This document shows positions 3,969 to 25,041 of a DNA stretch of 64,000 nt, piece after piece; the stretch's first letter is position 1; every line of letters starts with the position of its first letter. The notes under the pieces were generated by a model. That model made no database searches and was not told where the DNA came from. It saw only the letters and a list, made by a program, of their open reading frames with translations. Both the position numbers and the translations under genes were made by a program. The DNA is from Escherichia phage SP27: sequence record LC494302.1; one strand, given 5' to 3'.

Positions 3969-4184
3969 AAATTCGAAACTATCAGGTTACCGTAACAACA
4001 CGTTGAAGTACAATGATATTAAGTACTGGGTTGATCCTTACTTAAATAAATCATTGTTAATGTACAGAGATAAATCACGAGATCTATATGGAATATATGT
4101 TACTCAGTTAATATATATAATAGATTCCGAACATTTTACTCCATTGGTATACCTGTACTGCTTGTATAATTCAAAATAACTATT

Positions 4185-4230
4185 AGCACCTCTAAATAAT
4201 GTATATAAACATTAATGAGGTGCTTTTTTA
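4185..4230 (+). terminator. Rho-independent terminator (long imperfect hairpin plus T6)
   Basis: AGCACCTC…GAGGTGCT stem with an inner AATGT/ACATT stem, followed by TTTTTT. Confidence 0.45.
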
Positions 4231-5021
4231 TGTCTTACGATTATATGGGTGGAAACCCTGATGCTCCTAACTTTGACCATCGTGAAAAACTGAAAGATGT
4301 TATCACTCAAATGTTGGGTGCTGGGGCCGTTGAGGTAGAAATTACTGATGGTCAATTAGAAATTGCAATTGATAATGCGGTATCGAATTACAGAGCGTGG
4401 AGTTCTGCTTCTAAAGAAGAAGCATTTTTAAATATGAAATTTTATGATTCACAATCTGTATATATGCTACCAACTGAAGTTGAAATTGTTAAAAAGATTT
4501 ATCGTTATGGTAATGGTTACTTAAGTTCTGGTAGTGGGAACTCAGTAGATCCGTTTTCTCTAGCATTCACCAACACTTACTTATTGACTTCAGCACGAAA
4601 TGCAGGTGGATATGATCTAACTACATATGATTTTAGTTTTCAGTTCCAAGAACTGGTAGGTCGTATGTTTGGTCGTGATATTATATTTCAATTTAACCCA
4701 ATGACCAAAAAATTAATTATAGATCGTGATATTCGCGGTACTGAAGAAGTACTATTACACGTATATCATAATATTCCTGAACCATTGTTGTTTCAAAGAC
4801 AGCAAAGTTATCCTTGGCTACGTGATTGGGCATTGTCTGAAGCCATGATTATGTTGGGTCGTAACCGTGCCAAATTTGCTTCTCTTCCAGGTCCACAGGG
4901 AACGTTTTCTATGGATGGTGATACATTACGTAATGAAGGATTACAACTTCAGGAACAGCTTAAAGAGCGTTTGAAACGTTATCAAGATGGTGCTGAACCA
5001 CTAGGTATGATTATTGGATAA
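4230..5021 (+). CDS. Hypothetical protein, possibly virion-associated (neck-like?)
   Basis: Second in-frame ATG chosen because the first (4215) lies inside the terminator hairpin; MSYDYMGGNPDAPNF…. Confidence 0.5.
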   Translation: MSYDYMGGNPDAPNFDHREKLKDVITQMLGAGAVEVEITDGQLEIAIDNAVSNYRAWSSASKEEAFLNMKFYDSQSVYMLPTEVEIVKKIYRYGNGYLSSGSGNSVDPFSLAFTNTYLLTSARNAGGYDLTTYDFSFQFQELVGRMFGRDIIFQFNPMTKKLIIDRDIRGTEEVLLHVYHNIPEPLLFQRQQSYPWLRDWALSEAMIMLGRNRAKFASLPGPQGTFSMDGDTLRNEGLQLQEQLKERLKRYQDGAEPLGMIIG

Positions 5022-5025
5022 ATTA

Positions 5026-5053
5026 AAAAAGACTCCTATATGGAGTCTTTTTC
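5026..5053 (+). terminator. Rho-independent terminator
   Basis: AAAGACTCC-TATAT-GGAGTCTTT hairpin then TTT. Confidence 0.5.
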
Positions 5054-5071
5054 ACATTATGTGATATAATG
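5036..5071 (+). promoter_or_regulatory. Early-type promoter with extended -10 (ATGTGATATAAT)
   Basis: TCACAT-T-ATGTGATATAAT about 27 nt upstream of ATG 5098; weak -35. Confidence 0.4.
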
Positions 5072-5097
5072 ATAATATTAATCTTAAGGAACCTAAC

Positions 5098-5367
5098 ATG
5101 AATAACAACATAGATGCAATGTATAACAAATATAGTTGTGGTGCACCTACATTAGATTATGAGTCAACAGAAAAATTCTGGAAATTTTTAAAAGAATCAA
5201 TCGTTGATGTTTTCGGTAGAGAACGAATAAACGCGTGGGCGAGTATATGTCGTGATGATAATGGAGAAACATTCTACATCACTTATGTTACTATATATTA
5301 TGGGAGCGAGTTTATAGTTCAATTACTTGAATGTTTAGTAGGAAAGGATTTAGTGGTACTTATATAA
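5098..5367 (+). CDS. Hypothetical early protein (89 aa)
   Basis: ATG 5098 after AAGGAA; directly downstream of the promoter-like element. Confidence 0.5.
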   Translation: MNNNIDAMYNKYSCGAPTLDYESTEKFWKFLKESIVDVFGRERINAWASICRDDNGETFYITYVTIYYGSEFIVQLLECLVGKDLVVLI

Positions 5368-5385
5368 TATACATGGAGAAGTATT

Positions 5386-6012
5386 ATGGAAAGACAAATA
5401 ATTGCAATTAACGGTACTATTGGAAGTGGTAAAGATACTTTTGGAGAAACTTTTATTAATAATGGTTACACCAGAATGTCATTTGCAACTAATCTTAAAG
5501 ATTCTGTTGCTGCTATTTTTGGATGGGATCGTGAAATGCTTGAAGGTTCAACTAAGGAAAGTCGTAAGATTCGTGAAGAACCGGACCAGTACTGGTGTGA
5601 TAAGTTAGGTCGTAATGATGTATCCCCTCGATGGGTATTGCAGAATTATGGTACTAATATTTTGCGTAAGTATTTTCATAATGATATTTGGGTATTCAGT
5701 TTAGAAAAATCAATGCAAGACATAGATGGAAATATCATCATCACTGATTGCCGTTTTCCAAATGAATTAAAAATGATTAGATCGAATAATGGGACTATTA
5801 TTGAAGTTCAACGTGTTCTACCACATTGGTATGGTTTGGCGGCCTCTTATAATAAAGGGGATATTAATATTAAACCAGTTGAACTAGAATCAGTACACGA
5901 ATCTGAGTGGGCTTGGATTGGCATAAACAATCCTGATATAATTGTACAGAATAACAGTACTATTGATGATTTACATAAAAAAGCAATGGACATTATTTAT
6001 TCTAATACATAA
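5386..6012 (+). CDS. Deoxynucleoside monophosphate kinase (T4 gp1-like)
   Basis: P-loop GTIGSGKDT and ITDCRFPNELKMIRSNNGTIIEVQR, resembling the T4 gp1 DTRQ…ATVIHVVR region from memory. Confidence 0.7.
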   Translation: MERQIIAINGTIGSGKDTFGETFINNGYTRMSFATNLKDSVAAIFGWDREMLEGSTKESRKIREEPDQYWCDKLGRNDVSPRWVLQNYGTNILRKYFHNDIWVFSLEKSMQDIDGNIIITDCRFPNELKMIRSNNGTIIEVQRVLPHWYGLAASYNKGDINIKPVELESVHESEWAWIGINNPDIIVQNNSTIDDLHKKAMDIIYSNT

Positions 6013-6106
6013 ATTATAAACAATAAGGACTGGACAATTAAATCCTTCAATAAATAAGACTATACGAATATATTTCGAATAACCAATTATTTTTGGAGGA
6101 TTTAAT

Positions 6107-8770
6107 ATGGCAGGAGATCTACTCTCACCTGGCGTTTCCATTTCAGTAACTGATGAAAGTATGAGTACCGCTGCTGCTCCTGGCACTGTACCACTATTTG
6201 TAATCGCTACTGCTGAAGACAAACTTGTCCCAGGAAGCAGTGCAATTGCTGCGGGAACTACTAAAGCAAACGCTGGAAAACTACAGCTTCTAACATCACA
6301 AAAAAGCTCACTTGATACCTATGGTACACCAATTTTTCAAATGAATAACGGTTCTGTTGTTCAAGGTGATGAACTAAACGAATATGGCCTACATGCAGTA
6401 TATTCTTATCTAGGCATTACTAACCGTGCATATGTAATTCGTGCTGATATCGATCTAGCACAACTAGCACCAAGTGCTGAAGCACCAACTGGCCCAGTAT
6501 CCAATGGTACTTTGTGGTTTGATACCGCACAATCACAAGTAGAAGCGTATGTAGCGAAGAAAGATAGTCCAAGCAGTTTTTATGATTGGCAACTTAAGCC
6601 AGTAACTATTGTAAGTGCTGAAGAAGTTGAAGATGTAAGTCTAGTAGGTTTAAATGTTGATGATTTAGTTCTACGTTACAAACCAAGCAATGGTCAGATG
6701 CTAATGTATAAACGTTCTGCTTCTGGGCTAGTGCAAATGGAAACTTATCTATCACCAATTAACAAAGTTCCAGTTGGCTCAACTGTAGAAAAAGGTAACA
6801 TTTGGATTCGTGATGGTTACACCCAAAATGGTTCAAACTATTTTGGTACTCGTTTTGTTATTAAACGTTATGCATCCCTAACTCAAGTTTGGAATATTGT
6901 ACCAGCATATACTGGTAATTCATTCCAAGAAATTGAAGCGAAAAGTGGTGTACTAAACAATAGTTATATCGCATCTCGTTTTGATGAAGATAGTAAGAGT
7001 TTCTCTTTCTATATTCAAAGTGCAAAACTAACAACAATTAGTGCTCCTGCTTTGCCACTTGGTGAAACTATTATTGAACAAGCAGGTGCTGATAGTTATA
7101 TGACTTTTGTTTATTTGAATAAATCAGTTAAAGTACTAGCAGTTCCACAAGGCGGTGTTATTAATACCCAAACTATCATCAATAATCTAAATGCAAATGT
7201 TGAAATTATTAACGATGGTTTTAAATTTAAACGTGAAACTAATGGTGGTTTAGTTGTTTCCAATACAAAAGGTTACAGTTTCAAAATCACACAAAGTGGT
7301 GATGATATTTTTGCTGAATCTGAACTACAAAAACTAACAGTAGATAGTAACAACTACTCTCTAATTAACGTGAATAACTTCCGTGTTAGTTATTCAGTAC
7401 CACGTAGTGTAGCAAAAGAAGGAACTCTCTGGTATGATTTCGGGAACTCCGATAATCTAACTGTAACTATGTATGTTGCTGATGTTGCTAATGATGAATG
7501 GGATCTAGTACAAGAAGAAAACAAATATGTACAAGTTGATGAACCAGCGGCTGACCGTTTAATTTGGGTTTGTCCTTTATCCCAAGGCATTGATGGTTAT
7601 GATTTCTATCGTAACGTTGATGGTGAATGGGTTAAACTTGACAGTACTGATCAAAGTACACTAAATGGTATGATTTTCCAAGACTTTAATTTCCCAAGCC
7701 AAGTTCCTGCTGCGGCATTGTATCAAAATGGTATGCTTGCAGTTGACCTAGGTAACACTGAAGGTGTTGTTAAGAAAATGGTTAATGGTCAATGGGAAGT
7801 TGTTAGTGGTGTAAGTCTTGATGGTGCTGGCCTATTTGGTCGTGCTGCACAACGTCAACTAGTAGTTGAAGCACTAGCTGCTGTTATTATTGGTAATGAT
7901 GACATTCGTTCTGAATTTATTGATTTTAACCTAATTTGTGTACCTGGTTACGTTGAAACACTTGATGAATGTGTAACTTTAAACACTGATCGTAAAGAAA
8001 CTGCATTTATTGTTACTGACGTTCCAGCACGTTTGAATCCAACTGGAAACGGTAGTGCTGTACAACAATGGGCTACTAATGCTAACAATGCACCAAGCAA
8101 CGGTTCAGTTGGTCGTACAACTGCTTATGATTATGCTGCTCAGTATATGGGTTGGTGTCTAAGTACTAACGTTGATGGTGAAGAAGTTGCAGTTCCTGGT
8201 AGTACTATTGCAATGCGTACATATGCATACAGTGATAGTGTTAGTTATGTATGGTATCCACCTGCTGGTACAACTCGTGGTGTTGTAACAAACGCTGCAA
8301 GTACTGGTTTTATCAACAGCGAAGGTGAATATCAACCAGTAGTATACAACCAAGGTCAACGTGACGTTATGTATACTAACAACATTAACCCAATTGCAAT
8401 GCGTCCTAACCGTGGTTTGCTTGTTTATGGAGATAAAACTCTATCTGCTAATCAAACTTCTGCACTAAGTCGTGTTAACGTTGCTCGTTTAGTTGTTTAT
8501 ATTCGTCGTCAACTAGAAATTATTTCCGAACCATTCCTATTCCGTTTGAATACTCCAAGTACTCGTCAGGAATTTAGTGGTGTAGTTAATAGCTTCTTGG
8601 CTGAAATTGTTCAACAACAGGGTCTTTATAACTTCGCAGTGGTTTGTGATGAAAGTAACAACACCGCAGAGCGTATTGACCGTAATGAACTTTGGATGGA
8701 TATTGCAATTCAACCAACTAAGAGTATTAACTTCATTTACGTACCAATCCGTATCGAGAAAACTCAATAA
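6107..8770 (+). CDS. Contractile tail sheath protein (T4 gp18 family, extended to 887 aa)
   Basis: C-terminus VARLVVYIRRQLE…FAVVCDESNNTAERIDRNELWMDIAIQPTKSINFIYV parallels the recalled T4 gp18 RVVCDTTNNTPSVIDRNEF…IQPARSINYI. Confidence 0.9.
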   Translation: MAGDLLSPGVSISVTDESMSTAAAPGTVPLFVIATAEDKLVPGSSAIAAGTTKANAGKLQLLTSQKSSLDTYGTPIFQMNNGSVVQGDELNEYGLHAVYSYLGITNRAYVIRADIDLAQLAPSAEAPTGPVSNGTLWFDTAQSQVEAYVAKKDSPSSFYDWQLKPVTIVSAEEVEDVSLVGLNVDDLVLRYKPSNGQMLMYKRSASGLVQMETYLSPINKVPVGSTVEKGNIWIRDGYTQNGSNYFGTRFVIKRYASLTQVWNIVPAYTGNSFQEIEAKSGVLNNSYIASRFDEDSKSFSFYIQSAKLTTISAPALPLGETIIEQAGADSYMTFVYLNKSVKVLAVPQGGVINTQTIINNLNANVEIINDGFKFKRETNGGLVVSNTKGYSFKITQSGDDIFAESELQKLTVDSNNYSLINVNNFRVSYSVPRSVAKEGTLWYDFGNSDNLTVTMYVADVANDEWDLVQEENKYVQVDEPAADRLIWVCPLSQGIDGYDFYRNVDGEWVKLDSTDQSTLNGMIFQDFNFPSQVPAAALYQNGMLAVDLGNTEGVVKKMVNGQWEVVSGVSLDGAGLFGRAAQRQLVVEALAAVIIGNDDIRSEFIDFNLICVPGYVETLDECVTLNTDRKETAFIVTDVPARLNPTGNGSAVQQWATNANNAPSNGSVGRTTAYDYAAQYMGWCLSTNVDGEEVAVPGSTIAMRTYAYSDSVSYVWYPPAGTTRGVVTNAASTGFINSEGEYQPVVYNQGQRDVMYTNNINPIAMRPNRGLLVYGDKTLSANQTSALSRVNVARLVVYIRRQLEIISEPFLFRLNTPSTRQEFSGVVNSFLAEIVQQQGLYNFAVVCDESNNTAERIDRNELWMDIAIQPTKSINFIYVPIRIEKTQ

Positions 8771-8776
8771 AACACT

Positions 8777-8806
8777 AAGGGAACCTTTTGGTTCCCTTTT
8801 TTATTG
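8777..8806 (+). terminator. Rho-independent terminator after the sheath gene
   Basis: AGGGAACC-TTTT-GGTTCCCT followed by TTTTTTATT. Confidence 0.6.
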
Positions 8807-8849
8807 ATTAAAATTAAATACCTTTATATTGATGTTATAAAGGAACATT

Positions 8850-8975
8850 ATGGATATGGAAGAAATACTAAAAAAAACAATACAAGATGTCAGTAAAATA
8901 GTTTTAACTCAGTTGGAATCAGTACACATACTAAATATATTTTTAAAAAATTTGGAAGATTGTCGGTATAATTGA
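8850..8975 (+). CDS. Possible small ORF (41 aa) in the sheath-tube intergenic region
   Basis: ATG 8850 after AAAGGAAC; MDMEEILKKTIQDVSKIVLTQLESVHILNIFLKNLEDCRYN; below the ORF-track cutoff. Confidence 0.2.
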   Translation: MDMEEILKKTIQDVSKIVLTQLESVHILNIFLKNLEDCRYN

Positions 8976-9165
8976 AAAATACGAAGTATACACAAATGGA
9001 AAATGGTCTATATCAGTAAACTATATTGACCACACTAAACGAAAAAGATACTTATATTGTGTTAATATTAATTGGTTCCCTGTTGATGACACTTTAGTTA
9101 ATTAAAAATATACTTCCAGATAGATAAATAATATAAAGATGTCATTCCATAATAGGAGAATATAA

Positions 9166-9852
9166 ATGGCTACAATGCTTGATCGATATGGCGTACCGCT
9201 CGCTGGCGGTGGTCGTATCTCTATGAAACAACCAAAAGCAAAATACAAATTTCGTGTTATTTTCTTTGGTTTTGGTACTAATGATGATGGTAATATGATT
9301 ACACTAGACACCAATACAGTTGGGGCAGTATCTGTATCACATGAAAATGTTACTGTTCATAGTTACAACAGTTCTGCACACTATAAAGGTAAGTACACTT
9401 GGGATACAATTGATGTTGCTTTCCGTGACTCAGTAGGTAATGCTTCTGCTAAAGCACTATACAACCAAATGCGTAAAGAATTCAACTACTACAGTCAAGA
9501 ATCTCGCATGACAGATTCACAATTTAAATTTGAAATGTGGATTCAAGAGCTTGATGGTTCTAATAGTGAAAATACAACAAACTTGTTTGAAGGAACATTG
9601 AGTACTTGGGTATGTCAAGGTTGCTTTATTGAATCCAGCAACTTTGGTGATTGGGATTATTCCTCAAGTGAAGCACAAGTTATTTCAATGACTGTTCAAC
9701 CAGATGGTTGTGCTAAATTGGGTCCAAATGGCGAAGCGTTCGGTGATGAAGTTAGTGGCTTCGGTAATCCATCAACTGCTACCTCTATTTCTGGTGCACA
9801 AACTAATATTAGTAGTACTACTCTACCAGATAGTAACTTCTACGAAAATTAA
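9166..9852 (+). CDS. Tail tube protein (paralog 1)
   Basis: Directly downstream of the sheath gene; YGVPLAGGGRISMKQPKAKYKFRVIFFGFG is shared with the next gene. Confidence 0.55.
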   Translation: MATMLDRYGVPLAGGGRISMKQPKAKYKFRVIFFGFGTNDDGNMITLDTNTVGAVSVSHENVTVHSYNSSAHYKGKYTWDTIDVAFRDSVGNASAKALYNQMRKEFNYYSQESRMTDSQFKFEMWIQELDGSNSENTTNLFEGTLSTWVCQGCFIESSNFGDWDYSSSEAQVISMTVQPDGCAKLGPNGEAFGDEVSGFGNPSTATSISGAQTNISSTTLPDSNFYEN

Positions 9853-9873
9853 TTTTATTTAAACTTAATATAT

Positions 9874-9903
9874 AGCCTCGAATCTATTCGGGGCTTTTTT
9901 TAT
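9874..9903 (+). terminator. Rho-independent terminator
   Basis: AGCCTCGAA-TCTA-TTCGGGGCT hairpin followed by T7. Confidence 0.55.
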
Positions 9904-9946
9904 GCTAAATAAAGTATAATGCCTTATAAAATAAAAAGAGGTTGCT

Positions 9947-10723
9947 ATGGCAAATAACATGATTAATAAATATGGCGTTCCTTTACCATCGGGGCGTAAT
10001 CGTTCAATGCTACAACCGAAAGCAAAATACAAGTTTCGTGTTATTGTGTATAATTTCGGTACTGATATAGATGAACGTGATCACATCGCATTAGATGTTG
10101 ATAAAATTGATAGACCTACTGTAACATTTAGTACTCATAAACTATATCAATTTACTACTAATACTTCCTATATAGGTAGTCATGATTGGGAACCAATTAC
10201 AATATCTATCCGTGATTCAGTTGGTAATGCATCAGCAAAAGCATTATCACGACAATTACAAAAACAACTTGACTTTCAACGTAGAATAACTTCCAGAAAT
10301 GACCAAGATTATGGTTCTTATAAATTTGGTTTGGTTATACAGATGTTGAGTGGACGTAACTCAGATGATACACTAGGAAATCTAGGAAGAGATACTCTAG
10401 TAGATGCTGCAACTGCTGCAACAAATAATTCTGGCTTAGTAAATGCAGTAGATCAATTTATTGGTGGTTCTTCATATAACAGTGCTGGTGTTATGGAATA
10501 CTTTGTTTTAACCGGATGTGTTATTCAAAACATATCATACGATTCATTAGATTATAGCTCAAGTTCTCCAGTTGAAATGGTAGTTACTATCAAACCAGAT
10601 AATTGTATACAATTTGATAATATTGAAGAAATGTATAGTACCAGAATTAATTCACTTTTACCTGAAAATGTCAATCAAGGTTTAGATATCATTGATCGTG
10701 TTTTTGGTAGTGTAGGATTTTAA
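9947..10723 (+). CDS. Tail tube protein (paralog 2)
   Basis: YGVPLPSGRNRSMLQPKAKYKFRVIVYNFG parallels the previous gene; RBS AAGAGG. Confidence 0.55.
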   Translation: MANNMINKYGVPLPSGRNRSMLQPKAKYKFRVIVYNFGTDIDERDHIALDVDKIDRPTVTFSTHKLYQFTTNTSYIGSHDWEPITISIRDSVGNASAKALSRQLQKQLDFQRRITSRNDQDYGSYKFGLVIQMLSGRNSDDTLGNLGRDTLVDAATAATNNSGLVNAVDQFIGGSSYNSAGVMEYFVLTGCVIQNISYDSLDYSSSSPVEMVVTIKPDNCIQFDNIEEMYSTRINSLLPENVNQGLDIIDRVFGSVGF

Positions 10724-10734
10724 GGAGATAATGA

Positions 10735-12842
<2,108 letters not shown>

Positions 12843-16487: not shown

Positions 16488-16883
16488 ATGCAATATAATT
16501 ATCGTGAACTAGTTGAAGCGTTAGACGAAATTACCGGAAGAGATGAAGACGAAAGTTTTTCAGTTGAAGTTGAATCCGATGTTGTAGCAGTTGATGTTCT
16601 TAAGGATATTACCAAATGTCTTATTGATATTGTTGATAAGATTAAATCTGGTGAAGACCAAAAAGAAATTGTAGATAAACTACAAAAAGCCTGTGACATT
16701 TTGTCTGACATTCGATATAATGATGAAAGTACTGAAGTTGCTGATGAAGAAGTGTTGGAAGCCATTGCAGGTTGTTTTGGAACTGAAGGTATGGGACCAA
16801 CAATTGACAAAGAAGGCGTACAACACTATAATGAGCCTGGTGCACCATCATATGCTGCACGTCAAGGTTTTGTTGGAGACTAA
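16488..16883 (+). CDS. Acidic hypothetical protein (131 aa)
   Basis: ORF with RBS GGAGAC; overlaps the upstream stop. Confidence 0.5.
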   Translation: MQYNYRELVEALDEITGRDEDESFSVEVESDVVAVDVLKDITKCLIDIVDKIKSGEDQKEIVDKLQKACDILSDIRYNDESTEVADEEVLEAIAGCFGTEGMGPTIDKEGVQHYNEPGAPSYAARQGFVGD

Positions 16884-16886
16884 TAT

Positions 16887-17267
16887 ATGTTTCCAGAACC
16901 ATCACATAACAGTACTGAATATCAAAATAATGTACTTTCCAAAGTTAGGGAAGTACATGAATCAGATTCAGAAATAACAGACCGTATGCTTCTGATGTCA
17001 ATTTTTGAAAATTTCAGAACTGGCGGTGGTTTACGTCTTAGCAAGTTTGGGTATGGAATTTGTAAAGAAAATAATCTTTATGAATTTACAAAAATCCCCT
17101 TGCAAAGAGAATTTAAAAGTTCTATAATGTTTACATCACTTGACAGAATATGTACTTCACCTTATTATGTTGAAGGTCAGTACATATATCTGACAGATGC
17201 AATGATAATAACTGAATTAACATTGTGTTGTGACGATTTTAAACAGTTATTTTCTATTCATATGTAA
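16887..17267 (+). CDS. Hypothetical protein (126 aa)
   Basis: ORF with RBS GGAGAC. Confidence 0.45.
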   Translation: MFPEPSHNSTEYQNNVLSKVREVHESDSEITDRMLLMSIFENFRTGGGLRLSKFGYGICKENNLYEFTKIPLQREFKSSIMFTSLDRICTSPYYVEGQYIYLTDAMIITELTLCCDDFKQLFSIHM

Positions 17268-17291
17268 GAAAAAATGAATTAAAAATAAATG

Positions 17292-17319
17292 TTGACAAGA
17301 TAGAATGATGTGATACAAT
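17292..17319 (+). promoter_or_regulatory. Sigma70-like promoter (TTGACA-16-TACAAT), diverged first copy of the array
   Basis: TTGACAAGATAGAATGATGTGATACAAT. Confidence 0.5.
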
Positions 17320-17386
17320 AAGCATCAGACATAAAGTTTTCAAGCGACACAAGATGTGAGTTTGAAAAAAAAAAGAAAAAAAGTGA

Positions 17387-17414
17387 TTGACAAGTTGAAA
17401 CGATGTGATATAAT
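17387..17414 (+). promoter_or_regulatory. Strong sigma70-like promoter (repeat copy 1)
   Basis: TTGACA 17387-17392, 16-nt spacer, extended -10 TGATATAAT; upstream A-tract resembles an UP element. Confidence 0.55.
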
Positions 17415-17480
17415 GTTCACATCAAGACAGCAAAGAGATTTACCTTTTAAACACACGGAAAAAAAAAAGAAAAAAAGTGA

Positions 17481-17508
17481 TTGACAAGTTGAAACGATGT
17501 GATATAAT
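17481..17508 (+). promoter_or_regulatory. Strong sigma70-like promoter (repeat copy 2)
   Basis: Identical to copy 1, 94 bp downstream. Confidence 0.55.
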
Positions 17509-17569
17509 GTTCACATCAAGACAGCAAAGAGATTTACCTTTTAAACACACGGATGATTCATGAAGTAAC

Positions 17570-17617
17570 AAAGGAACTGATAAGTTAAATTATTTTAACA
17601 CAGTTCCTTTACTTTTG
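17570..17617 (+). terminator. Hairpin plus U-tract between the promoter array and the proximal promoter (terminator or attenuator-like)
   Basis: AAAGGAACTG-(21-nt loop)-CAGTTCCTTT followed by ACTTTTG. Confidence 0.35.
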
Positions 17618-17636
17618 CCCACGGATTGGCTATAAT
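17608..17636 (+). promoter_or_regulatory. Sigma70-like promoter proximal to the AAA+ gene (TTTACT-17-TATAAT)
   Basis: TTTACTTTTGCCCACGGATTGGCTATAAT about 40 nt upstream of ATG 17678. Confidence 0.45.
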
Positions 17637-17677
17637 AGAAACTTAAACGATTTTATCCAACAAAAGGAAATATATAC

Positions 17678-19003
17678 ATGACTACTCAAAACGATATCCT
17701 GAACGTTAAACTGACTCCAAAGAAAGCTAAAGAAGCAATGGCACTAGCTGACATGATTCAAGATAGCCTGATGATTTGGGGTAGCCCAGGTATCGGTAAG
17801 TCTGCAATCGCTCGTCAATACGCTGATGAAAATTACCCACTGCGTAAAGATAACGTAGCTAAAATCGAGTTCATGAAACAACAAATCGAAGCTGACCCTG
17901 AAAATGCTGATCAGCTACGCCGTGAACTGGCTGCATTTGAAGCAAAACTAATCGACCAAGATACTAACTTTATCGATTTCCGTTTGTCTCAAATCGAACC
18001 AAGTGACCTTCGCGGTATTCCAGTACCAGAGAAGCTTTTCCGTAAAACTGACGGTTCTCTTCTGAAAGAATCTGAGCTTGCCGAAGCAAAAGATTATGTA
18101 GCTGAAACTGCGGTAGTATGGGCTGCACCTAAAGTTCTGAAATTGTCCGAAGATTGGAAAGGTGTTATTCTGTTTGACGAAATTAACTCTGCAATGCCTA
18201 TTGTTCAGGCAGCGTCTTATCAGCTAATCCTCGACCGTTGTGTTGGTGAGATGAAGCTACCTAAGACTGCACTGATTCTTGCAGCAGGTAACCGTGAAAC
18301 TGATGGCGGTGTAACTTTCTCTCTTGCTACACCACTGCGTGACCGTATGACTCACATTGAGATGATTCCTTATCATCAAGATTGGATTAACGATTATGCG
18401 ATTGCAAAACGTTTGAACCCAGCAACTGTTGCGTTCATCAACAACACTGGTTCTAAGTACTTTAACACACTTAGTCCACAAGATCCTTCTCACAGTGGTG
18501 GTACTTCTCCACGTTCATGGGAAGCAGTAGCACGCTACGAAGATCTCAAGAAAACTAAGACAATTGATAAAGAAGTGTTCCGTGCAATGATTGCTGGTCG
18601 TGTTGGTGAAGGTGTTGCAACTGAATACATTGAGTACGTTGAGAACGTTGCTAAACTACCAGATACTATGTCTATTCTGTCTGGTGAAATCAAAGAAATC
18701 GACGCAACGCTGGATATTTCTGCGAACTACTTTATCACTCTGAACTTGGTTTATAAAATTATCGACCTGTTCAATGAGAAGCAAGAACAACGTCTACCAG
18801 TGGAAGAATGGGGTAAACTGTGTAACAACTTCATCACCTTCCTAGACCATAACTTCTCTGCAACTCAAGCAGAACTGGCAGTACTGGCAATTCGTACCAT
18901 CACGCTTCATAAGGTTGCGATTTCCATTAAAGATGTACCAGCGTTTAAAGATTTCATCGCTAAGTACTCTGAACTTGTACGTAAAGCACGCTCTCTTGGC
19001 TAA
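17678..19003 (+). CDS. MoxR-like AAA+ ATPase (CobS-like)
   Basis: Walker A GSPGIGKS, Walker B VILFDEINSA, MoxR-type FRLSQIEPSDLRG segment; CTG/CGT-rich codon usage unlike neighbouring genes. Confidence 0.8.
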   Translation: MTTQNDILNVKLTPKKAKEAMALADMIQDSLMIWGSPGIGKSAIARQYADENYPLRKDNVAKIEFMKQQIEADPENADQLRRELAAFEAKLIDQDTNFIDFRLSQIEPSDLRGIPVPEKLFRKTDGSLLKESELAEAKDYVAETAVVWAAPKVLKLSEDWKGVILFDEINSAMPIVQAASYQLILDRCVGEMKLPKTALILAAGNRETDGGVTFSLATPLRDRMTHIEMIPYHQDWINDYAIAKRLNPATVAFINNTGSKYFNTLSPQDPSHSGGTSPRSWEAVARYEDLKKTKTIDKEVFRAMIAGRVGEGVATEYIEYVENVAKLPDTMSILSGEIKEIDATLDISANYFITLNLVYKIIDLFNEKQEQRLPVEEWGKLCNNFITFLDHNFSATQAELAVLAIRTITLHKVAISIKDVPAFKDFIAKYSELVRKARSLG

Positions 19004-19025
19004 TTAACAAAGAGTTGTTGACAAG

Positions 19026-19056
19026 AAGGATGCCTAATGGTATCCTTCTTTTATCT
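19026..19056 (+). terminator. Rho-independent terminator
   Basis: GAAGGATGCC-TAAT-GGTATCCTTC then TTTTAT. Confidence 0.5.
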
Positions 19057-19077
19057 TAACTAAACGAGGAAATATAC

Positions 19078-20502
19078 ATGTCAGATAACAAATCTACTTC
19101 CAGATTCAATGAAGTATCTCCGGCACTCCAGAAAGAATGTCAAGATCGTCTGGTTCTGGCTCGTACATCTTTGATGTTAACTGCACCATTCTTTGGTGTA
19201 CTCGCTTCACGTTTACGTCCAGTTCCTAATAATACATGGTGTCGTACTCTAGCAGTTGATGGTAAACATCTATTCTACAACGTAGAATTTGTAATGGGTA
19301 TTCAAGACCCATCTAAAAAGAAAGAATATGAAGAAGCTATTCGTGAAAAGCATCCTGAAGTTACAGACGAACAATTAAAAGAAATGACTGAAGGTTTGAC
19401 TGATGAAAACCTTATTGCTGTAATTTGTCATGAAATTCTACACTGTGCTTACGATCACTTCCTTCGTCGTGGTATGCGTGATCCACAACGTTATAACCGT
19501 GCAGCGGATTATGCCATTAACCAAATCATCGTTCGTGAGAAAATTGGAAAAATCCAAAGTTCATGGTTGTATGATAAAAAATATGAAGGTATGACCGCAG
19601 AAGAGATTTACATTCTTCTTGAAGAAGAAGAACAAAAAGAAGATGGTGAAGGTGAAGGTCAACCACAAAGTGGCGGCGGTGAAGGTGAAGGTAAAAATCG
19701 CGGTACTTTTGGTGATATTAAAGATGGTAAGGGTAAACCAAAAGGTACTACCATTGACCAGCATGACGTTCCACAAGAAGGTCAAGAAGGTGGTTCAAGT
19801 GAACAGCAAAAACGTGATTATATGGATGATTTCAAAACAGCAATGATGAATGCTGCACGTGCAGGTGGTACACCAGCAGAAATCGCTCGTATGATTAACA
19901 ACTTTAAAGAACCAAAGATTGACTGGCGTTCAAAACTTCAACGTACACTTCGTAGTTGGTTGAAGTCTGATGCAACGTATCAAAGTCCTTCTCGTCGTTC
20001 ATGGGGTGCTGGTTTTGGTTCTAATGGTTCATTCTATGGTAATCCAATTTACCCAGGGATGAAACCAGATGATGATATTGATATTGCGATTGCACTAGAT
20101 GCTTCTGGGTCTATTTCTGAAGATATGCTTCGTGATTTCATTAGTGAAGTTCTTGGCATCACTAAACAATTCAAACAGTTTAAGATTCGTATCATGACTT
20201 TTGATACTGAAGTTTATACTGTAAAGGATTACAAAACTGGCGAAGAACGTAAGATTCTGGAATATCCAGTAAAAGGTGGTGGTGGTACTGACTTTGAAGC
20301 AGTATGGGTTCATATGAAGAACGACAACTACAAGCCTAAACAGCTTGTAATGTTTACTGATGGTGAACCGTGGCAGTCATGGGGTGATCCAAACTACTGT
20401 AAAACACTGTTCGTGATTCACAGTAACCCAAATAAAGTTGCACCATTTGGTGAGACTGTACACTACGAATATGAAGCTGATAAAAAGCGTCAACGTAGTT
20501 AA
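19078..20502 (+). CDS. vWA-domain protein with an N-terminal HExxH metallopeptidase-like motif (DUF2201/CobT-like partner of the MoxR ATPase)
   Basis: HEILH in ICHEILHCAYDH; vWA MIDAS motif DIAIALDASGSIS; Gly/Glu-rich linker. Confidence 0.75.
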   Translation: MSDNKSTSRFNEVSPALQKECQDRLVLARTSLMLTAPFFGVLASRLRPVPNNTWCRTLAVDGKHLFYNVEFVMGIQDPSKKKEYEEAIREKHPEVTDEQLKEMTEGLTDENLIAVICHEILHCAYDHFLRRGMRDPQRYNRAADYAINQIIVREKIGKIQSSWLYDKKYEGMTAEEIYILLEEEEQKEDGEGEGQPQSGGGEGEGKNRGTFGDIKDGKGKPKGTTIDQHDVPQEGQEGGSSEQQKRDYMDDFKTAMMNAARAGGTPAEIARMINNFKEPKIDWRSKLQRTLRSWLKSDATYQSPSRRSWGAGFGSNGSFYGNPIYPGMKPDDDIDIAIALDASGSISEDMLRDFISEVLGITKQFKQFKIRIMTFDTEVYTVKDYKTGEERKILEYPVKGGGGTDFEAVWVHMKNDNYKPKQLVMFTDGEPWQSWGDPNYCKTLFVIHSNPNKVAPFGETVHYEYEADKKRQRS

Positions 20503-20512
20503 GTACTAAATA

Positions 20513-20545
20513 AAGAGAACGGAATTTTCCGTTCTCTTCTTTTAT
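20513..20545 (+). terminator. Rho-independent terminator
   Basis: AGAGAACGG-AATTTT-CCGTTCTCT then TCTTTTAT. Confidence 0.6.
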
Positions 20546-20547
20546 AA

Positions 20548-20577
20548 GTGGGACAACTTATAAAAATATGATATAAT
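20548..20577 (+). promoter_or_regulatory. Sigma70-like promoter (GTGGGACA-16-TATAAT), second copy of the motif at 1440
   Basis: AAGTGGGACAACTTATAAAAATATGATATAAT. Confidence 0.4.
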
Positions 20578-20611
20578 AGTTAATGTACCAATATACATGG
20601 AGAGTATTAAA

Positions 20612-20857
20612 ATGGAACAAGAAAATAATCAAATTCAACTAACCCTTCTAGACCTAATCAATGCTGCAAAAATCATGGAAGCTGCTGTTGCACGAAACAC
20701 CTTTAAAGTTGAAGAACTTGTTGAGGTTGCTCCAGTTGTATCTAAATTTGTTTCTTTTGCAAATGTAGCTCTTGAAGATATTAAAGCACAAGAAGATGCA
20801 GCTAAAGAAGAAGCTGAATCACAAGATAGTGAAACTCAAGAAGATAAAGGAGAATAA
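20612..20857 (+). CDS. Small acidic early protein (81 aa)
   Basis: ATG 20612 has GGAGAG 8 nt upstream (the track's 20597 ATG lies within the RBS); acidic C-terminus. Confidence 0.5.
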   Translation: MEQENNQIQLTLLDLINAAKIMEAAVARNTFKVEELVEVAPVVSKFVSFANVALEDIKAQEDAAKEEAESQDSETQEDKGE

Positions 20858-20859
20858 TT

Positions 20860-21516
20860 ATGGCAGCTATTCGTCATGTTGGTGTAATGCGTAATACAGG
20901 TTCTCGTGTTTTTGTTGTTTGGCGTTCACTACCAGATGATCCTGAACACTGCCTTATCGTTTATCGTGATTCACTACCAGAAGCATATGTTCACGCAGTA
21001 ACTGATATTGTTATGGGTCATGGTCAATCTAATATTGATTTGTGGGAAGTAATGCATAAAATTGGTTATCTCGATGGACGCAAAATGCTAGATGTTCTAC
21101 ACAACATGCAGCATCTACGTCGCGTTCGTACTTGTGACATTGATATGCACACTGGTGGTAATAATAAAATTTCTCTTGATGTTCTAAACAAAGCATTAGA
21201 TGAAAATCAAGCGAAAGTACAAGAAGATGGTAAAGTAAAAGACTTTAACCCATTCAATCCACAAGAAGCGGACACTAAAGTAGAAGAAGCTACTATTGTA
21301 GAACAACTTCTCACTGATGCACAAAAATATGAAAAACTGGCTAAAGAACATTATGAACGTGCATACAATTTAGAGCCAAGCTTGCGTCCGCAAACACAAG
21401 TTGTTGAACAACCGAAAGATAGTAAAACAATTTATCTAGAAATTCCAGAAGGTATTTCACAGACTAAAGCTATTGAGAAAGTAAAACAACTATTTGCAGA
21501 ACGTAAAGCAAAATAA
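20860..21516 (+). CDS. Hypothetical protein (218 aa)
   Basis: ATG after AAGGAGAA. Confidence 0.55.
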   Translation: MAAIRHVGVMRNTGSRVFVVWRSLPDDPEHCLIVYRDSLPEAYVHAVTDIVMGHGQSNIDLWEVMHKIGYLDGRKMLDVLHNMQHLRRVRTCDIDMHTGGNNKISLDVLNKALDENQAKVQEDGKVKDFNPFNPQEADTKVEEATIVEQLLTDAQKYEKLAKEHYERAYNLEPSLRPQTQVVEQPKDSKTIYLEIPEGISQTKAIEKVKQLFAERKAK

Positions 21517-21519
21517 AAT

Positions 21520-22113
21520 ATGAAAAAGAATGAATTAGATGAAGCAATTAAAGGTTTATCTAATGTATGTTTTAGTGGCGGGGCAGCAGGTGCTGACCGC
21601 CTTTTTTCTATCTATGCAAAAAATAATGGATTTGAAGTTATTAATTTTTCATTCAAAGGTCATGAGCATAGTGTAGATGAAAGTACTATATTAGAAATAC
21701 CATCCAATATTCTATCTGATATTTCTATATTAAATCAACTAAACATTGCATGTTACTCGTTGCAGCGAAAAGTACCAAAACCTGGTTCTTATGTTTACAA
21801 CTTACTTGCAAGGAATAGTTATCAGATACTTAATACAGAAAGAATATATTGTATTGCAAATATCACATCACCAACTAAGGTAAGTGGTGGTACTGCATGG
21901 GCAGTACAGATGTATATGGATTCAGTTGAAAATCCTGAAATTTATTGTTATGATATGAATTCACGTTCAGTATTTTATTTCGATACAGTACTGAAAGAGT
22001 TCACACAAACATTCGTCGTTCCAGCACCACATGGTAACTGGACTGGTATTGGTTCACGCAATGCCACCGAAAAACATATGGAACATTTTATTACATTTTT
22101 CAAGGAAGAATAA
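21520..22113 (+). CDS. Rossmann-like protein with an SLOG/DprA/LOG-type glycine motif
   Basis: FSGGAAGADRL and GGTAWAVQM resemble SLOG-superfamily nucleotide-binding loops; stop overlaps the thyA start. Confidence 0.4.
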   Translation: MKKNELDEAIKGLSNVCFSGGAAGADRLFSIYAKNNGFEVINFSFKGHEHSVDESTILEIPSNILSDISILNQLNIACYSLQRKVPKPGSYVYNLLARNSYQILNTERIYCIANITSPTKVSGGTAWAVQMYMDSVENPEIYCYDMNSRSVFYFDTVLKEFTQTFVVPAPHGNWTGIGSRNATEKHMEHFITFFKEE

Positions 22114-23042
22114 TGAAACAACTACAAGAACTATATCAAAAAATTCTAGATGAAGGCGTAGAAAGCGTTGACCGTACTGGTGTTGGAACAATCAAACTTA
22201 TCGGTCAACAAATGCGTTTTGACCTTAAAGATGGTTTCCCAGCAGTGACGACAAAACGTCTAGCTTGGAAAGCAATGACTTCAGAATTACTATGGTTTAT
22301 TGAAGGTTCCCATGATGAGCGTCGCCTTTGTGAAATTTTGCATGGAACTCGTGATACAGAAAAGAAAACTATTTGGACAGATAATTACCTAAATCAAGGC
22401 GTTGCTCTTGGTTATACTGATGGTGAGTTAGGTCCAGTGTATGGTAAGCAATGGCGTGAATGGGAAGATTATAAATTTAGTTCCAGTACTGAAGAAATTC
22501 AAGAATTAAAAGATAAAGGATACAAAGTTATCGATTATACTGGTTCACATGGTGTTGTTATGAAACGTACAACTGACCAATTACAAGAACTAATCAAAGG
22601 TATAAAGTCCGATCCATATGGCCGTCGCCACATTCTAAGTGCATGGAACGTTGGTGAGCTTGATGATATGACGTTACCACCTTGTCATAGCTTTGTGCAA
22701 TTTTGTGTAGTGCAAGGAAAACTAAGCTGTATTCTGCATCAACGCTCCGCTGATCTATTTTTAGGAGTTCCATTTAATATCAGTAGTTACTCACTACTAA
22801 CTCATATGATTGCACAAATTACTGGTTTAGATGTTGGTGAATTTATTTGGAATGGTGGTGATTGTCACATTTATAAAAACCACGTTGAACAAGTAAAAGA
22901 GCAACTACAGCGAAAACCTCGTGAATTACCTGAATTGTGGCTTGATCCTACAATTACTAATATTGAAGATTTCACTATGGATTCTTTTAAATTAGTGAAT
23001 TACAACCCAATGCCAACAATTAAAGCACCTATGGCTGTATAA
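22113..23042 (+). CDS. thyA: Thymidylate synthase (ThyA / T4 td-like), uninterrupted
   Basis: DRTGVGT, catalytic PPCH, QRSADLFLGVPFNISSYSLL, C-terminal IKAPMAV; collinear with E. coli ThyA plus one insertion. Confidence 0.9.
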   Translation: MKQLQELYQKILDEGVESVDRTGVGTIKLIGQQMRFDLKDGFPAVTTKRLAWKAMTSELLWFIEGSHDERRLCEILHGTRDTEKKTIWTDNYLNQGVALGYTDGELGPVYGKQWREWEDYKFSSSTEEIQELKDKGYKVIDYTGSHGVVMKRTTDQLQELIKGIKSDPYGRRHILSAWNVGELDDMTLPPCHSFVQFCVVQGKLSCILHQRSADLFLGVPFNISSYSLLTHMIAQITGLDVGEFIWNGGDCHIYKNHVEQVKEQLQRKPRELPELWLDPTITNIEDFTMDSFKLVNYNPMPTIKAPMAV

Positions 23043-23047
23043 ACGAA

Positions 23048-23078
23048 AAGGGAGAACATCAGTTCTCCCTTTTTTATT
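23048..23078. terminator. Bidirectional rho-independent terminator between convergent thyA and the fiber gene
   Basis: GGGAGAAC-ATCA-GTTCTCCC flanked by A-rich upstream and T6 downstream. Confidence 0.65.
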
Positions 23079-25041
23079 ATCTAATTGTTACCAATGTTCT
23101 TCCGTCGAAACGTACATCAGGAGTTGAAGGTATACTAAACACTACGTTAGTGCCGTTAAACGTAACGCTATCGACCTCAACACGAGTATAGACACCAGGA
23201 CTAACCTGTTCCTGTATCTCTGCTGTGACGATGTTTGAGGCTGTTACAGTAAGGGTGTAGTAGTTACCACTTAATACCCAAGATGAAATTGTAAAAGCAT
23301 CGGTTCTCACTGAACCTGAACCAATTGGAACCCATTGACCTTGAACTTTTTGCATTGAAGTACGCTCGGTATTGGAGTATGCAATCATACCATCAACGCC
23401 AACAGAGTTATCAATAGTAGCTAGTACTGGTAATTGGATACCATATCTATTAAAACGTGTTCTTATAGTTCCATTATCATAGATACTTACATCAGCATAA
23501 TTACCCATTGATAGTTTTAAATCAGAACTAACTAATTGGATTGTACTTTGATTAGTAGTACTTTCTAATGTAATTATACCATTAGCTAATAGATTTATAT
23601 TTTTAAATTTATTAGTTGTTCCATTGAAATTAGTGTTTGCTGTAAACGTACTAACTCCATTAACTGTAATTGTATCAGATGCAGCATCGCCTAATGTAGT
23701 ATTACCTTGAATGTTCAAATTACCACTAGCAGTGATATTACTAGCTGATGTATCACCAGTCAATGTACTTGTACCATCAACCACAATATTACCATGAAAC
23801 GCACTTTCACCATTTTTAAATTCAACTTGTACTTTATTCATTGAACTAAATGAAATAATATTACTACTAGCACTTAGTCCAACATTAGTATTGGTTGCAT
23901 TATCAAATCTTAGTACTGGGGTTGATGCTGGGGTTGAAGTTGTTTGGTATAATGTTAATGTTGAATTATTAATTCTAATACGTTCAGTTCCAGCAGTACT
24001 GAAACCAATTGCATCATCTGCTGGATGAAACATACCAGTATTAGCGTCTGACCATTTTGCAGGATCATTACCTGGGTTATTGGTTGGATCAAATGGATTG
24101 TTATTAAATGTCAATGCTGGTGCTGCTGCACTACCATAGACCACACCAAAACGCCCTGAGCCGCTTGTTCCATCATTATACATGGAATCACCAGTTCTAC
24201 GTAAACATTCAATCACAACGTTATCTATGGATGTTTGTACGGTTCCTGCGTTTGTTCTAAATTGACGATGGTTTGCAATCATTACTGTATTGTCATATAA
24301 TACAGAAGCAGCAGAAATGCTTGTTCTTGACTGGCGTAGACGTATGTTTTTATCTTCAGTTATAATGATCCAATCACCATCTGATAGTGCGGTTTGGTTC
24401 ATTGGAACGCCTGAAGCAAATGGTTTGGTTAAGTCAGCATCTGTTGCTAAATTTTTAAGACCATCATGACCAGTACTAGGAATAGATGCAGTAATAATTC
24501 TTGCAAAAGCGTATGTTACAAGTTTAGCACCAGATATATTTGGATTGGAGTCAACATAATATAAAATTTCAATCCAATTACCTTGACCAGTTGGGTTCGT
24601 AGGTGTAAATGTAACCGGACTTGTTTGTGGGTTATTTGCTTCAAAGTGTGCTTGTGCTGCATCCATAATACCACGAACAACATAATAATCACCATTTAGT
24701 GATGCTGCTGGTGCTGGTAGTGGTGTTTGTGCTAAAGGTGGATCAATATCATCTGGGATAGGATTGTATGTACCAACAAACTGTAAACCACTAGTTACTG
24801 AATCTGGTAATTGGGAAGTAAGAAGTTTACCATTTGCATCTAAGTTTGCAAAGCGGCGATATGCCATAGTACCATCTTCAAAATCCAGAACACCTTCAAA
24901 TGATTTCCATTCCTTATTGTATCTAATCATCCCTGATCTTATTACATCAGCGGTTTCTTTTGATGGTGCTTTCGGTAACTCTAAAAAAGATTTACTATCA
25001 ATAATTACACCACCATCACCTCTAATTCGATTTATACTCAT
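23077..25041 (-). CDS. Tail fiber protein (654 aa)
   Basis: N-terminal SGMIRYNKEWKSFEGVLDFEDGT fiber-type motif; G/S/T/N-rich C-terminal part; RBS GAGGAAA. Confidence 0.6.
   Translation of the reverse strand: MSINRIRGDGGVIIDSKSFLELPKAPSKETADVIRSGMIRYNKEWKSFEGVLDFEDGTMAYRRFANLDANGKLLTSQLPDSVTSGLQFVGTYNPIPDDIDPPLAQTPLPAPAASLNGDYYVVRGIMDAAQAHFEANNPQTSPVTFTPTNPTGQGNWIEILYYVDSNPNISGAKLVTYAFARIITASIPSTGHDGLKNLATDADLTKPFASGVPMNQTALSDGDWIIITEDKNIRLRQSRTSISAASVLYDNTVMIANHRQFRTNAGTVQTSIDNVVIECLRRTGDSMYNDGTSGSGRFGVVYGSAAAPALTFNNNPFDPTNNPGNDPAKWSDANTGMFHPADDAIGFSTAGTERIRINNSTLTLYQTTSTPASTPVLRFDNATNTNVGLSASSNIISFSSMNKVQVEFKNGESAFHGNIVVDGTSTLTGDTSASNITASGNLNIQGNTTLGDAASDTITVNGVSTFTANTNFNGTTNKFKNINLLANGIITLESTTNQSTIQLVSSDLKLSMGNYADVSIYDNGTIRTRFNRYGIQLPVLATIDNSVGVDGMIAYSNTERTSMQKVQGQWVPIGSGSVRTDAFTISSWVLSGNYYTLTVTASNIVTAEIQEQVSPGVYTRVEVDSVTFNGTNVVFSIPSTPDVRFDGRTLVTIR

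Follow-up and report, generated by a model that had tools for sequence, protein, structure and literature searches.

We analysed a 64,000-nucleotide stretch of Escherichia phage SP27 (sequence record LC494302.1; the window below), which belongs to a jumbo coliphage of the 121Q/PBECO4/phAPEC6-like type (Asteriusvirus) and which, over bases 19000-25000, matches phAPEC6 at 99.8% identity and 121Q at 99.6%. The subject is a 197-aa protein encoded directly ahead of the thymidylate synthase gene thyA. The analysis indicated that this protein is a circularly permuted, YpsA/DprA-like member of the SLOG superfamily (it is called the SLOG protein here), that its gene is very probably expressed together with thyA, and that the most frequent neighbour of its relatives is a deoxynucleoside monophosphate (dNMP) kinase. 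We tentatively propose, with somewhat less than even confidence, that the SLOG protein is a nucleotide-binding or nucleotide-processing partner of phage dNMP metabolism.

Fold, conservation and strand order of the SLOG protein

Sequence comparison indicated that the 197-aa open reading frame (ORF) is a real gene under purifying selection, because an identical protein is encoded in diverged DNA, the ratio of nonsynonymous to synonymous change (pN/pS) is low, and hundreds of homologues keep 15 invariant residues. The protein sequence was 100% identical in at least 13 phage records among the matches listed, including PBECO4, CRJP21 and JP4, although the DNA around the gene in these three phages is about 97-98% identical, and pN/pS was 0 against PBECO4 (3 synonymous and 0 nonsynonymous differences) and 0.15 against BF17. 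The motifs SGGAAGAD (residues 19-26) and SGGTAW (122-127, with GGTAW at 123-127) are present as stated in the original prediction, which had been made from the letters of the window and had used these two loops to place the protein in the SLOG/DprA-like superfamily. Further motifs are R83/P86, NLLARNSYQ (94-102) and WTGIGSR (174-180). An alignment of 55 sequences, which are 25-78% identical, contained 15 invariant columns (S19, G20, A22, G24, D26, A77, R98, Q102, G123, T125, A128, G176, I177, G178 and R180) and 17 near-invariant columns, among them R83, P86, N99 and W127.

The superfamily assignment was borne out. Profile search did not lead to an unrelated fold but to PHROG 768, 'DprA-like DNA recombination-mediator protein' (E 1.3e-26, residues 4-161), and the RefSeq name of 121Q gp567 (YP_009102154.1) is the same DprA-like label. 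A match to YAcAr (PF10686, formerly DUF2493) reached 20.2 bits (E 5e-4, residues 6-44), which is below the cut-off of 28.2, and similar sub-threshold matches were found in 21 of the 55 relatives. The AlphaFold2 model computed from the family alignment had a predicted local distance difference test score (pLDDT) of 97.2 and a predicted template modelling score (pTM) of 0.92, and it predicts a three-layer alpha/beta protein in which strands and helices alternate. Its best PDB structure match in Foldseek was 3imk, a 'putative molybdenum carrier protein' (probability 1.00, E only 3e-3, template modelling (TM) scores 0.49/0.59), so the layering of the model and its similarity to a solved SLOG structure both argue for the SLOG fold. 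We take 3imk to be a member of Pfam PF12694, presumably the former 'MoCo carrier' family, and the name of PF12694 in the current Pfam library is 'Circularly permutated YpsA SLOG family'. Single-sequence and family-profile searches of PDB sequences in the native order gave nothing meaningful, the NCBIfam scan gave no model for the SLOG protein, and no Pfam or NCBIfam model matched the family above threshold.

The C-terminal WTGIGSR resembles the first strand of DprA, "IVGSR", which is N-terminal there. Residues 166-197 were therefore shifted to the front of the chain and the searches were repeated. DprA was absent from the PDB matches of the family profile in native order, whereas the top four PDB matches of the permuted-order profile were all DprA (S. 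pneumoniae 3uqz with E 0.0022, then three H. pylori chains), and the alignment ran across the artificial junction, with GIGSR-helix-SGGAxGAD set against VVGSR-helix-SGLAKGID of DprA. The Pfam model DNA_processg_A was matched by 8 of 10 permuted sequences, from model positions 45-50, and in native order by 11 of 55 at all. With hhalign against the single sequence of E. coli Smf, the permuted order aligned over 113 columns in the expected register and the native order over 22 columns, the E values of the two orders being 0.32 and 0.55 and thus not significant. The model could also be aligned sequentially to 3imk, and therefore the permuted strand order seems to be common to 3imk and the SLOG protein. 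Permutation searches and sequential structural alignment together indicate that the SLOG protein is circularly permuted, with the usual first strand (GIGSR) now at the C-terminus.

The placement of GIGSR, SGGAxGAD, R83/P86, R98-N99-Q102 and GGTAW relative to the strands was read from the DSSP string of the model. In the canonical order, the elements are strand 1 with GIGSR, strand 2 and the loop SGGAAGAD, strand 3 with an insert after it, strand 4 and the loop SGGTAW, and strand 5, after which comes the three-strand meander. Two ligand or active-site positions are given in the published account of the TIR-DrHyd-SLOG clade, one of them the loop after strand 1, and according to the model these two positions are filled by GIGSR and by R83/P86-NLLARNSYQ. 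Thus, the SLOG superfamily is the right assignment, and the evidence supports a finer label, namely a YpsA/DprA-like SLOG family that is circularly permuted and separate from the families already modelled in Pfam.

Gene neighbourhoods and distribution of the family

To describe the neighbourhoods, ORFs were called in 107 fetched loci, the neighbours within four genes were clustered, and each neighbour cluster was counted once per SLOG lineage (60% identity), which gave 35 stand-alone lineages. The commonest neighbour was a protein of about 215 aa, found in 16 of the 35 lineages; it stood at position -1 in 32 loci, with a stop/start overlap of 1-34 nt in most of them, and was identified as a T4 gp1-type dNMP kinase (PF21448, E 6e-14; PHROG 139, E 2e-41). 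Atu_ph07, Phosso and a 549-kb metagenomic phage exemplify the usual position of the kinase-SLOG pair, which is beside tail sheath and neck genes. The window has its own kinase gene in the same slot as these distant T4-like and huge phages, but without a SLOG gene, and because the kinase keeps its place there, the SLOG gene of the RaK2-like clade has left the kinase slot or never occupied it, and adjoins a second dNMP enzyme, ThyA, instead. A thyA neighbour was found in only 3 of the 35 lineages, all of the RaK2-like clade, where the conserved block runs from a MoxR ATPase and an N4 gp25-like VWA/metallopeptidase protein through two or three small genes to the SLOG gene, zero to two small ORFs and thyA.

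Other contexts were more scattered. In one lineage (L015), a dCMP deaminase is found two genes ahead of the SLOG gene, and NMNAT-Nudix and NAMPT lie a few genes downstream. The remaining 17 lineages have mixed neighbours, including peptide deformylase (2), calcineurin-like phosphoesterase (2) and single cases of dUTPase, NADAR (L076), Acb1, DNA polymerase and ligase. A Metallophos phosphoesterase is directly upstream of the SLOG gene in L075, and an ORF of the same cluster is three genes upstream in L068. The SLOG gene of Caulobacter phage Cr30 follows the gp46/gp47 recombination nuclease genes; a peptide deformylase comes after it (region 3998-5055 of locus L001), and an ORF of the same deformylase cluster was seen three genes upstream in the metagenomic locus L042. 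In E. coli, smf, the true DprA gene, is the divergent neighbour of def (L108 2437-4200), and the proximity of SLOG and smf to deformylase genes may be accidental or may reflect shared ancestry.

A HMMER scan of 1.84 billion representative proteins, clustered at 50% identity, returned 2,818 clusters at E <= 1e-3 and 764 at E <= 1e-30, most of them stand-alone proteins of 175-210 aa. The family is almost wholly phage-encoded, with jumbo and T4-like phages as most of its known carriers, and copies were found in a few Flavobacteriia and Bacteroidales chromosomes. The chromosomal homologues of Flavobacterium, Myroides and Paenimyroides (L098-L105) are 27-31% identical and apparently in cellular context; the Pfam families of the Flavobacteriia neighbours include a sigma-54 activator and UPF0004/radical-SAM (MiaB-like), with the identity of the individual genes judged from ORF sizes.

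The domain also occurs inside larger proteins. It is embedded in giant proteins of the crAss-like phages cr113_1 and cr130_1 and lies within the annotated virion RNA polymerase of the N4-like phage Pylas (L008), and several metagenomic phages have similar giant proteins, one of which (L092/L093, ORF 4795-12603) carries a GGADLDGDE (DxDGD) motif. The embedded copies keep every motif. The DxDGD motif is, as we take it, of the kind associated with crAss-type polymerases, and virion polymerases of the Pylas type and the crAss type are believed to be unrelated. The SLOG domain is N-terminal in both kinds of virion RNA-polymerase giant protein, that of Pylas and the metagenomic one with DxDGD, and if the two polymerases are unrelated, it was fused to virion polymerases independently twice. 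One relative (P0154) is a fusion to a histidine phosphatase, in the giant protein P0198 a NADAR domain follows the SLOG domain at a distance of about 85 residues, and related folds also occur in helicase proteins. The Pfam scan was empty for the C-terminal extension of about 110 aa in P0072, P0084, P0096 and the relative from phage Phosso, for the N-terminally extended relative L056, and for the giant proteins P0215 and P0247.

The transcription unit ending in thyA

The SLOG gene is the third of four tightly packed genes, which are spaced by 2, 3 and -1 nt and lie between a promoter-like site and a terminator (Table 1). Its stop codon and the start codon of thyA have one base in common (TAATG), and a Shine-Dalgarno sequence for thyA lies within the last SLOG codons; its segment TTCAAGGA is unchanged in BF17, Turkey5 and RaK2. 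Across Asteriusvirus and RaK2 the junction takes three forms, TAATG, ATGA and TAAAAATG. The original prediction had read co-expression from the overlap, and it is the gene packing between promoter candidate and strong terminator, with the conserved Shine-Dalgarno sequence, that makes co-expression of SLOG gene and thyA as an operon well supported. The overlap itself is real but is weak evidence of a special link between the two genes, because such overlaps are common gene packing in this genome: among the 44 same-strand pairs in the window, 4 have stop/start overlaps of 1 nt and 12 are at most 10 nt apart or overlapping.

Table 1 Features of the dNMP kinase locus and of the SLOG-thyA unit in the window
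Feature	Position	Strand	Description
T4 gp1-type dNMP kinase	5386..6012	+	Neck (head-tail adaptor) gene before it; tail sheath gene (6107-8770) directly after it
Terminator-like hairpin	20513-20538		Closes the preceding N4-gp25-like gene, just before the promoter candidate
Promoter candidate	20550..20577	+	Sigma-70-like, GGGACA-16-TATAAT with TG; consensus match alone; ahead of the four-gene unit
Unit gene 1	20597..20857	+	86-aa acidic protein, PHROG 13789; ORF call and PHROG match
Unit gene 2	20860..21516	+	218-aa protein, PHROG 15894; begins 2 nt past the stop of gene 1
SLOG gene (121Q gp567 equivalent)	21520..22113	+	ATG start, 197 aa, TAA stop at 22111-22113
Shine-Dalgarno sequence of thyA	22102..22106	+	AAGGA, within the last SLOG codons, 6 nt ahead of the ATG
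thyA	22113..23042	+	309 aa, ATG at 22113-22115; canonical thymidylate synthase, long form
Intrinsic terminator	23045..23074	+	13-bp stem, then T run; ends the unit, between thyA and the convergent gene
Convergent structural gene	23077-25041		On the opposite side of the terminator from thyA

The downstream gene was indeed thyA, as had been predicted, with a Pfam PF00303 match of 340 bits (E 7.7e-102) and an NCBIfam equivalog score (NF002497) of 342.9 bits, which passes the cut-off of 327. The phage protein is 53% identical to E. coli ThyA, and PCH, QRS.D...PFNI, GGD.H.Y and the C-terminal KAPMAV are all aligned, which we take to be the catalytic Cys, the dUMP-binding Arg/Asn/Asp/His/Tyr and the C-terminal carboxylate tail. 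Compared with E. coli ThyA it has inserts of about 45 residues in total, including ...YKFSSSTEEIQELKDKGYKVIDYTGSHGVVMK..., and these are kept in RaK2, GAP32 and, partly, XaC1. These matches indicate that the product is a canonical thymidylate synthase, and the four-gene unit holds no DNA modification genes. A role in DNA base modification, which had been suggested as an alternative to nucleotide salvage, thus found no support and was rejected. As for the other two products of the unit, RaK2, GAP32 and XaC1 likewise encode the conserved 86-aa acidic protein ahead of the SLOG gene, and the 218-aa protein had no match in the Pfam scan.

The annotation of this locus differs among closely related records. 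The record of phAPEC6 (MK817115) splits the SLOG gene into two small ORFs (L011 3020-3157 and 3397-3594), although the 197-aa protein encoded there is 100% identical, and therefore proteomics of phAPEC6 could not have detected the SLOG protein properly; the record of CRJP21 (OQ708376) names the gene 'long tail fiber proximal subunit'. Virion mass spectrometry of phAPEC6 found the thymidylate synthase gp259c to be virion-associated (3 peptides), together with gp262c, the homologue of the 218-aa gene product (1 peptide), and the MoxR ATPase gp265c (6 peptides) (PMC7247149). The presence of these products in the phAPEC6 virion agrees with the occurrence of SLOG relatives inside virion proteins. 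In T4, thymidylate synthase is reportedly found in the baseplate, according to old reports.

Upstream of the unit, window positions 17678-20502 hold a MoxR-type ATPase gene (17678-19003) and a gene for a DUF2201 metallopeptidase-plus-VWA protein, a pair that resembles gp24/gp25 of N4. The second protein is called 'HNH endonuclease' in PHROG and RefSeq, a name for which its Pfam domains PF13203 and PF09967 give no support. A dense cluster of near-perfect sigma-70 promoters on the + strand was seen at 16690-17640, with three 12/12 matches (16804, 17387 and 17481) and three 11/12 matches. It lies mostly in the non-coding stretch before the MoxR ATPase gene (17678), and its earliest members overlap the two preceding ORFs.

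Proposed role and relation to known systems

Building on the fold, permutation, conserved residues, operon and neighbourhood statistics, which we regard as established, we infer the pocket, the ligand and the chemistry as follows. The SLOG protein is a stand-alone permuted YpsA/DprA-like SLOG domain of Rossmann-like fold, made from a four-gene transcript ending in thymidylate synthase, and a single pocket for a phosphate-bearing nucleotide is most likely lined by its conserved Ser/Thr, Arg, Asn/Gln, Asp and Trp. The ligand may be of the nucleoside or deoxynucleoside 5'-monophosphate type and would be either acted on or sensed. The protein would work alongside the phage dNMP enzymes, ThyA here and dNMP kinase in most relatives, possibly as a catalyst on an N-glycosidic bond or phosphoribosyl moiety, or as a regulatory or sequestering subunit. 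We favour a dNMP role because dNMP kinase, ThyA, dCMP deaminase, dUTPase and phosphatases have the phosphorylated mononucleotide in common, and such a ligand suits the three conserved Arg and the conserved Ser/Thr, Asn/Gln, Asp and Trp. The family shows two distinct juxtapositions to dNMP enzymes, kinase-SLOG in relatives and SLOG-thyA in the clade of the window. The nucleotide salvage of the original prediction is therefore plausible, but by way of the dNMP-kinase, dCMP-deaminase and phosphatase contexts of relatives, which go beyond the evidence it had itself drawn on.

Several points weigh against this proposal. Ala128 probably stands in place of the catalytic Glu of LOG enzymes, as judged from motif register, so LOG-type hydrolysis is unsupported, and we set a LOG-type hydrolase aside. 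The kinase-SLOG pair sits in a conserved T4-like tail module and may represent one inherited arrangement rather than 16 independent events. The adjacency to thyA is confined to one clade (3 lineages), and in GAP32- and XaC1-like relatives the two genes have one or two small ORFs between them. In about half of the lineages the neighbours are unrelated, and the contexts in giant virion RNA-polymerase proteins and with NADAR are not obviously explained by dNMP metabolism.

Some of these points would also be expected if the thyA adjacency had no functional meaning and the SLOG gene had simply landed in a packed operon, with a role independent of thymidylate synthesis. We consider this quite possible, though still doubtful, and it would be compatible with a role in dNMP metabolism, counter-defence or single-stranded DNA (ssDNA) binding alike. 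Overlaps of 1 nt are common (the 4 of 44 pairs above), the linkage belongs to one vertically related clade in which it is broken by the intervening ORFs of GAP32 and XaC1, and distant relatives have other neighbours; but the tight junction with the Shine-Dalgarno sequence inside the SLOG end is kept in three forms in Asteriusvirus and RaK2, and the gene, absent from the dNMP-kinase slot, is again beside a dNMP enzyme. Counter-defence, in which the SLOG domain would bind or degrade immune signals derived from NAD+ or ADP-ribose, such as isomers of cyclic ADP-ribose (cADPR), early in infection, appears unlikely but is not to be neglected. It has been predicted for viral YpsA-like SLOG domains, described as experimentally uncharacterised, by Iyer, Burroughs, Anantharaman and Aravind (PMC9503650; PMC7824862). 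The giant virion proteins of crAss-like and N4-like phages, which presumably enter the cell at infection, have the SLOG motifs intact, and the NADAR domain of P0198, the NADAR neighbour in L076, the Acb1 neighbour in one lineage and the NMNAT-Nudix and NAMPT genes of L015 all point the same way. However, each of these contexts was found in a single lineage, compared with 16 for dNMP kinase, Macro, NADAR and ART genes are absent from the operon in the window, the SLOG gene of the RaK2-like clade shares its unit with thyA, and Pfam scans of the long proteins P0215, P0247 and P0249 gave no Macro, NADAR or ART domain.

It seems rather improbable, although the idea deserves to be taken seriously, that the SLOG protein is a DprA-like ssDNA binder, which would use the GSR / SGxAxGxD / RN pocket in recombination or replication, or to tether dNTP-precursor enzymes to replicating DNA. 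Its nearest detectable sequence relatives are the DprA Rossmann domains, GIGSR aligns to GTR/GSR of DprA, and the motifs common to DprA and SLOG are, we assume, the ssDNA contacts in the H. pylori DprA-ssDNA structure. The position of the Cr30 gene after gp46/gp47, the fusions to virion RNA polymerases and the related folds in helicase proteins are also consistent with DNA binding. ShosA, which is DprA-like and acts outside transformation, still binds ssDNA and RecA (PMC12961424), and phage DprA/Smf was suggested as an extra ssDNA-binding protein by Iyer et al. 2021 (PMC7824862). Against this, the chain is permuted and lacks the SAM and winged-helix domains of DprA, the best relative reached 26 bits where the Pfam DprA threshold is 29.6, no UvsX/RecA or SSB gene was consistently near the SLOG gene in the 35-lineage survey, and the histidine phosphatase fusion and phosphoesterase neighbours suit a small phosphorylated ligand better. 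The isoelectric point (pI) gave no means of telling DNA binding from nucleotide binding, with a median pI of about 7 in the family and E. coli Smf itself acidic.

Within the proposed dNMP role, one long shot by analogy concerns host immunity. The Kongming defence uses phage dNMP kinases to make a deoxyinosine triphosphate (dITP) alarm signal, against which phage T5 employs a dNMP phosphatase. The permuted SLOG protein might, with low probability, serve the dNMP enzymes as a dedicated partner, removing or sequestering certain dNMPs (dAMP/dIMP or dUMP-type, for example) and so blocking Kongming-like exploitation of the dNMP-kinase/ThyA pathway. If this were true, the SLOG domain inside injected virion RNA-polymerase proteins would bring this activity into the cell as soon as infection begins. 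The permutation, the kinase coupling and the place beside thyA connect the family with a current question, namely how phages shield nucleotide-precursor enzymes from host immunity that exploits them.

The gene is already in GenBank and already labelled DprA-like, and phage SLOG domains have been surveyed computationally (PMC7824862, PMC9503650), with SLOG domains reported in 31% of jumbo phages (PMC9503650). We found no experimental work on this family in the literature, and the accessible literature did not contain the permutation test, the separateness from PF12694, PF10686 and PF02481, or the coupling to dNMP kinase with relocation to thyA. To our knowledge, no phage SLOG domain has been biochemically characterised. 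The permutation, the dNMP-kinase coupling and the thyA adjacency together define a concrete and inexpensive ligand set, and even if the protein were only an ssDNA binder or a cADPR sponge, a very widespread phage domain would thereby gain its first assigned function. The label 'DprA-like recombination mediator' in RefSeq and PHROGs is misleading for a family of about 2,800 clusters at 50% identity.

Compared with known systems, the SLOG protein shares with the LOG/PpnN 5'-monophosphate N-glycosidases the SLOG fold, a GG...T loop after strand 4 and an Arg in the helix after strand 3, and a nucleoside-monophosphate substrate would suit its dNMP context; it differs in having SGGTAWAVQ in place of PGGxGTxxE, with Ala128 probably replacing the catalytic Glu, and in having no Pfam LOG match. 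The proteins labelled DprA-like by PHROG 768 and RefSeq (121Q gp567, RaK2 ORF058, GAP32_215 and Cr30 gp147) represent the same gene, and the window protein is 100% identical to 121Q gp567, but the name is a label given by homology, and the chain order is unlike that of DprA. After re-ordering, the protein has the same motif succession as the DprA/Smf Rossmann domain (PF02481; 3uqz, 4ljk/4ljr), namely GSR, SGxAxGxD, P, RN and SG(S/T). Its architecture is not that of DprA, with the GSR strand C-terminal and 197 aa that include neither SAM nor winged-helix domain, and the window protein was unmatched by PF02481 in native or permuted order, the best family scores being 23.9-26 bits.

The permuted YpsA family (PF12694, 3imk) offers the best solved structural match and, as far as the model indicates, a common permuted strand order, and two members of the SLOG family (P0216, 19.5 bits; P0225, 17.5 bits) matched it below its gathering score of 26.2 bits. 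However, the window protein had no PF12694 match, the family profile does not find the 3imk sequence, and the model has two additional elements, a three-strand beta meander at residues 141-164 and a helical insert at 57-81. The YpsA/ThsA-type sensors and the viral YpsA-like SLOG domains of Iyer et al. (2021/2022) belong to the same superfamily branch and are likewise stand-alone, enriched in jumbo phages and occasionally linked to NADAR. No account of a dNMP-kinase context was found in these papers, although sporadic guanylate-kinase fusions are mentioned (PMC9503650). The contexts stressed there are Macro, NADAR and DUF4326 with ADP-ribose-derived ligands, whereas in the present family dNMP kinase is the dominant context.

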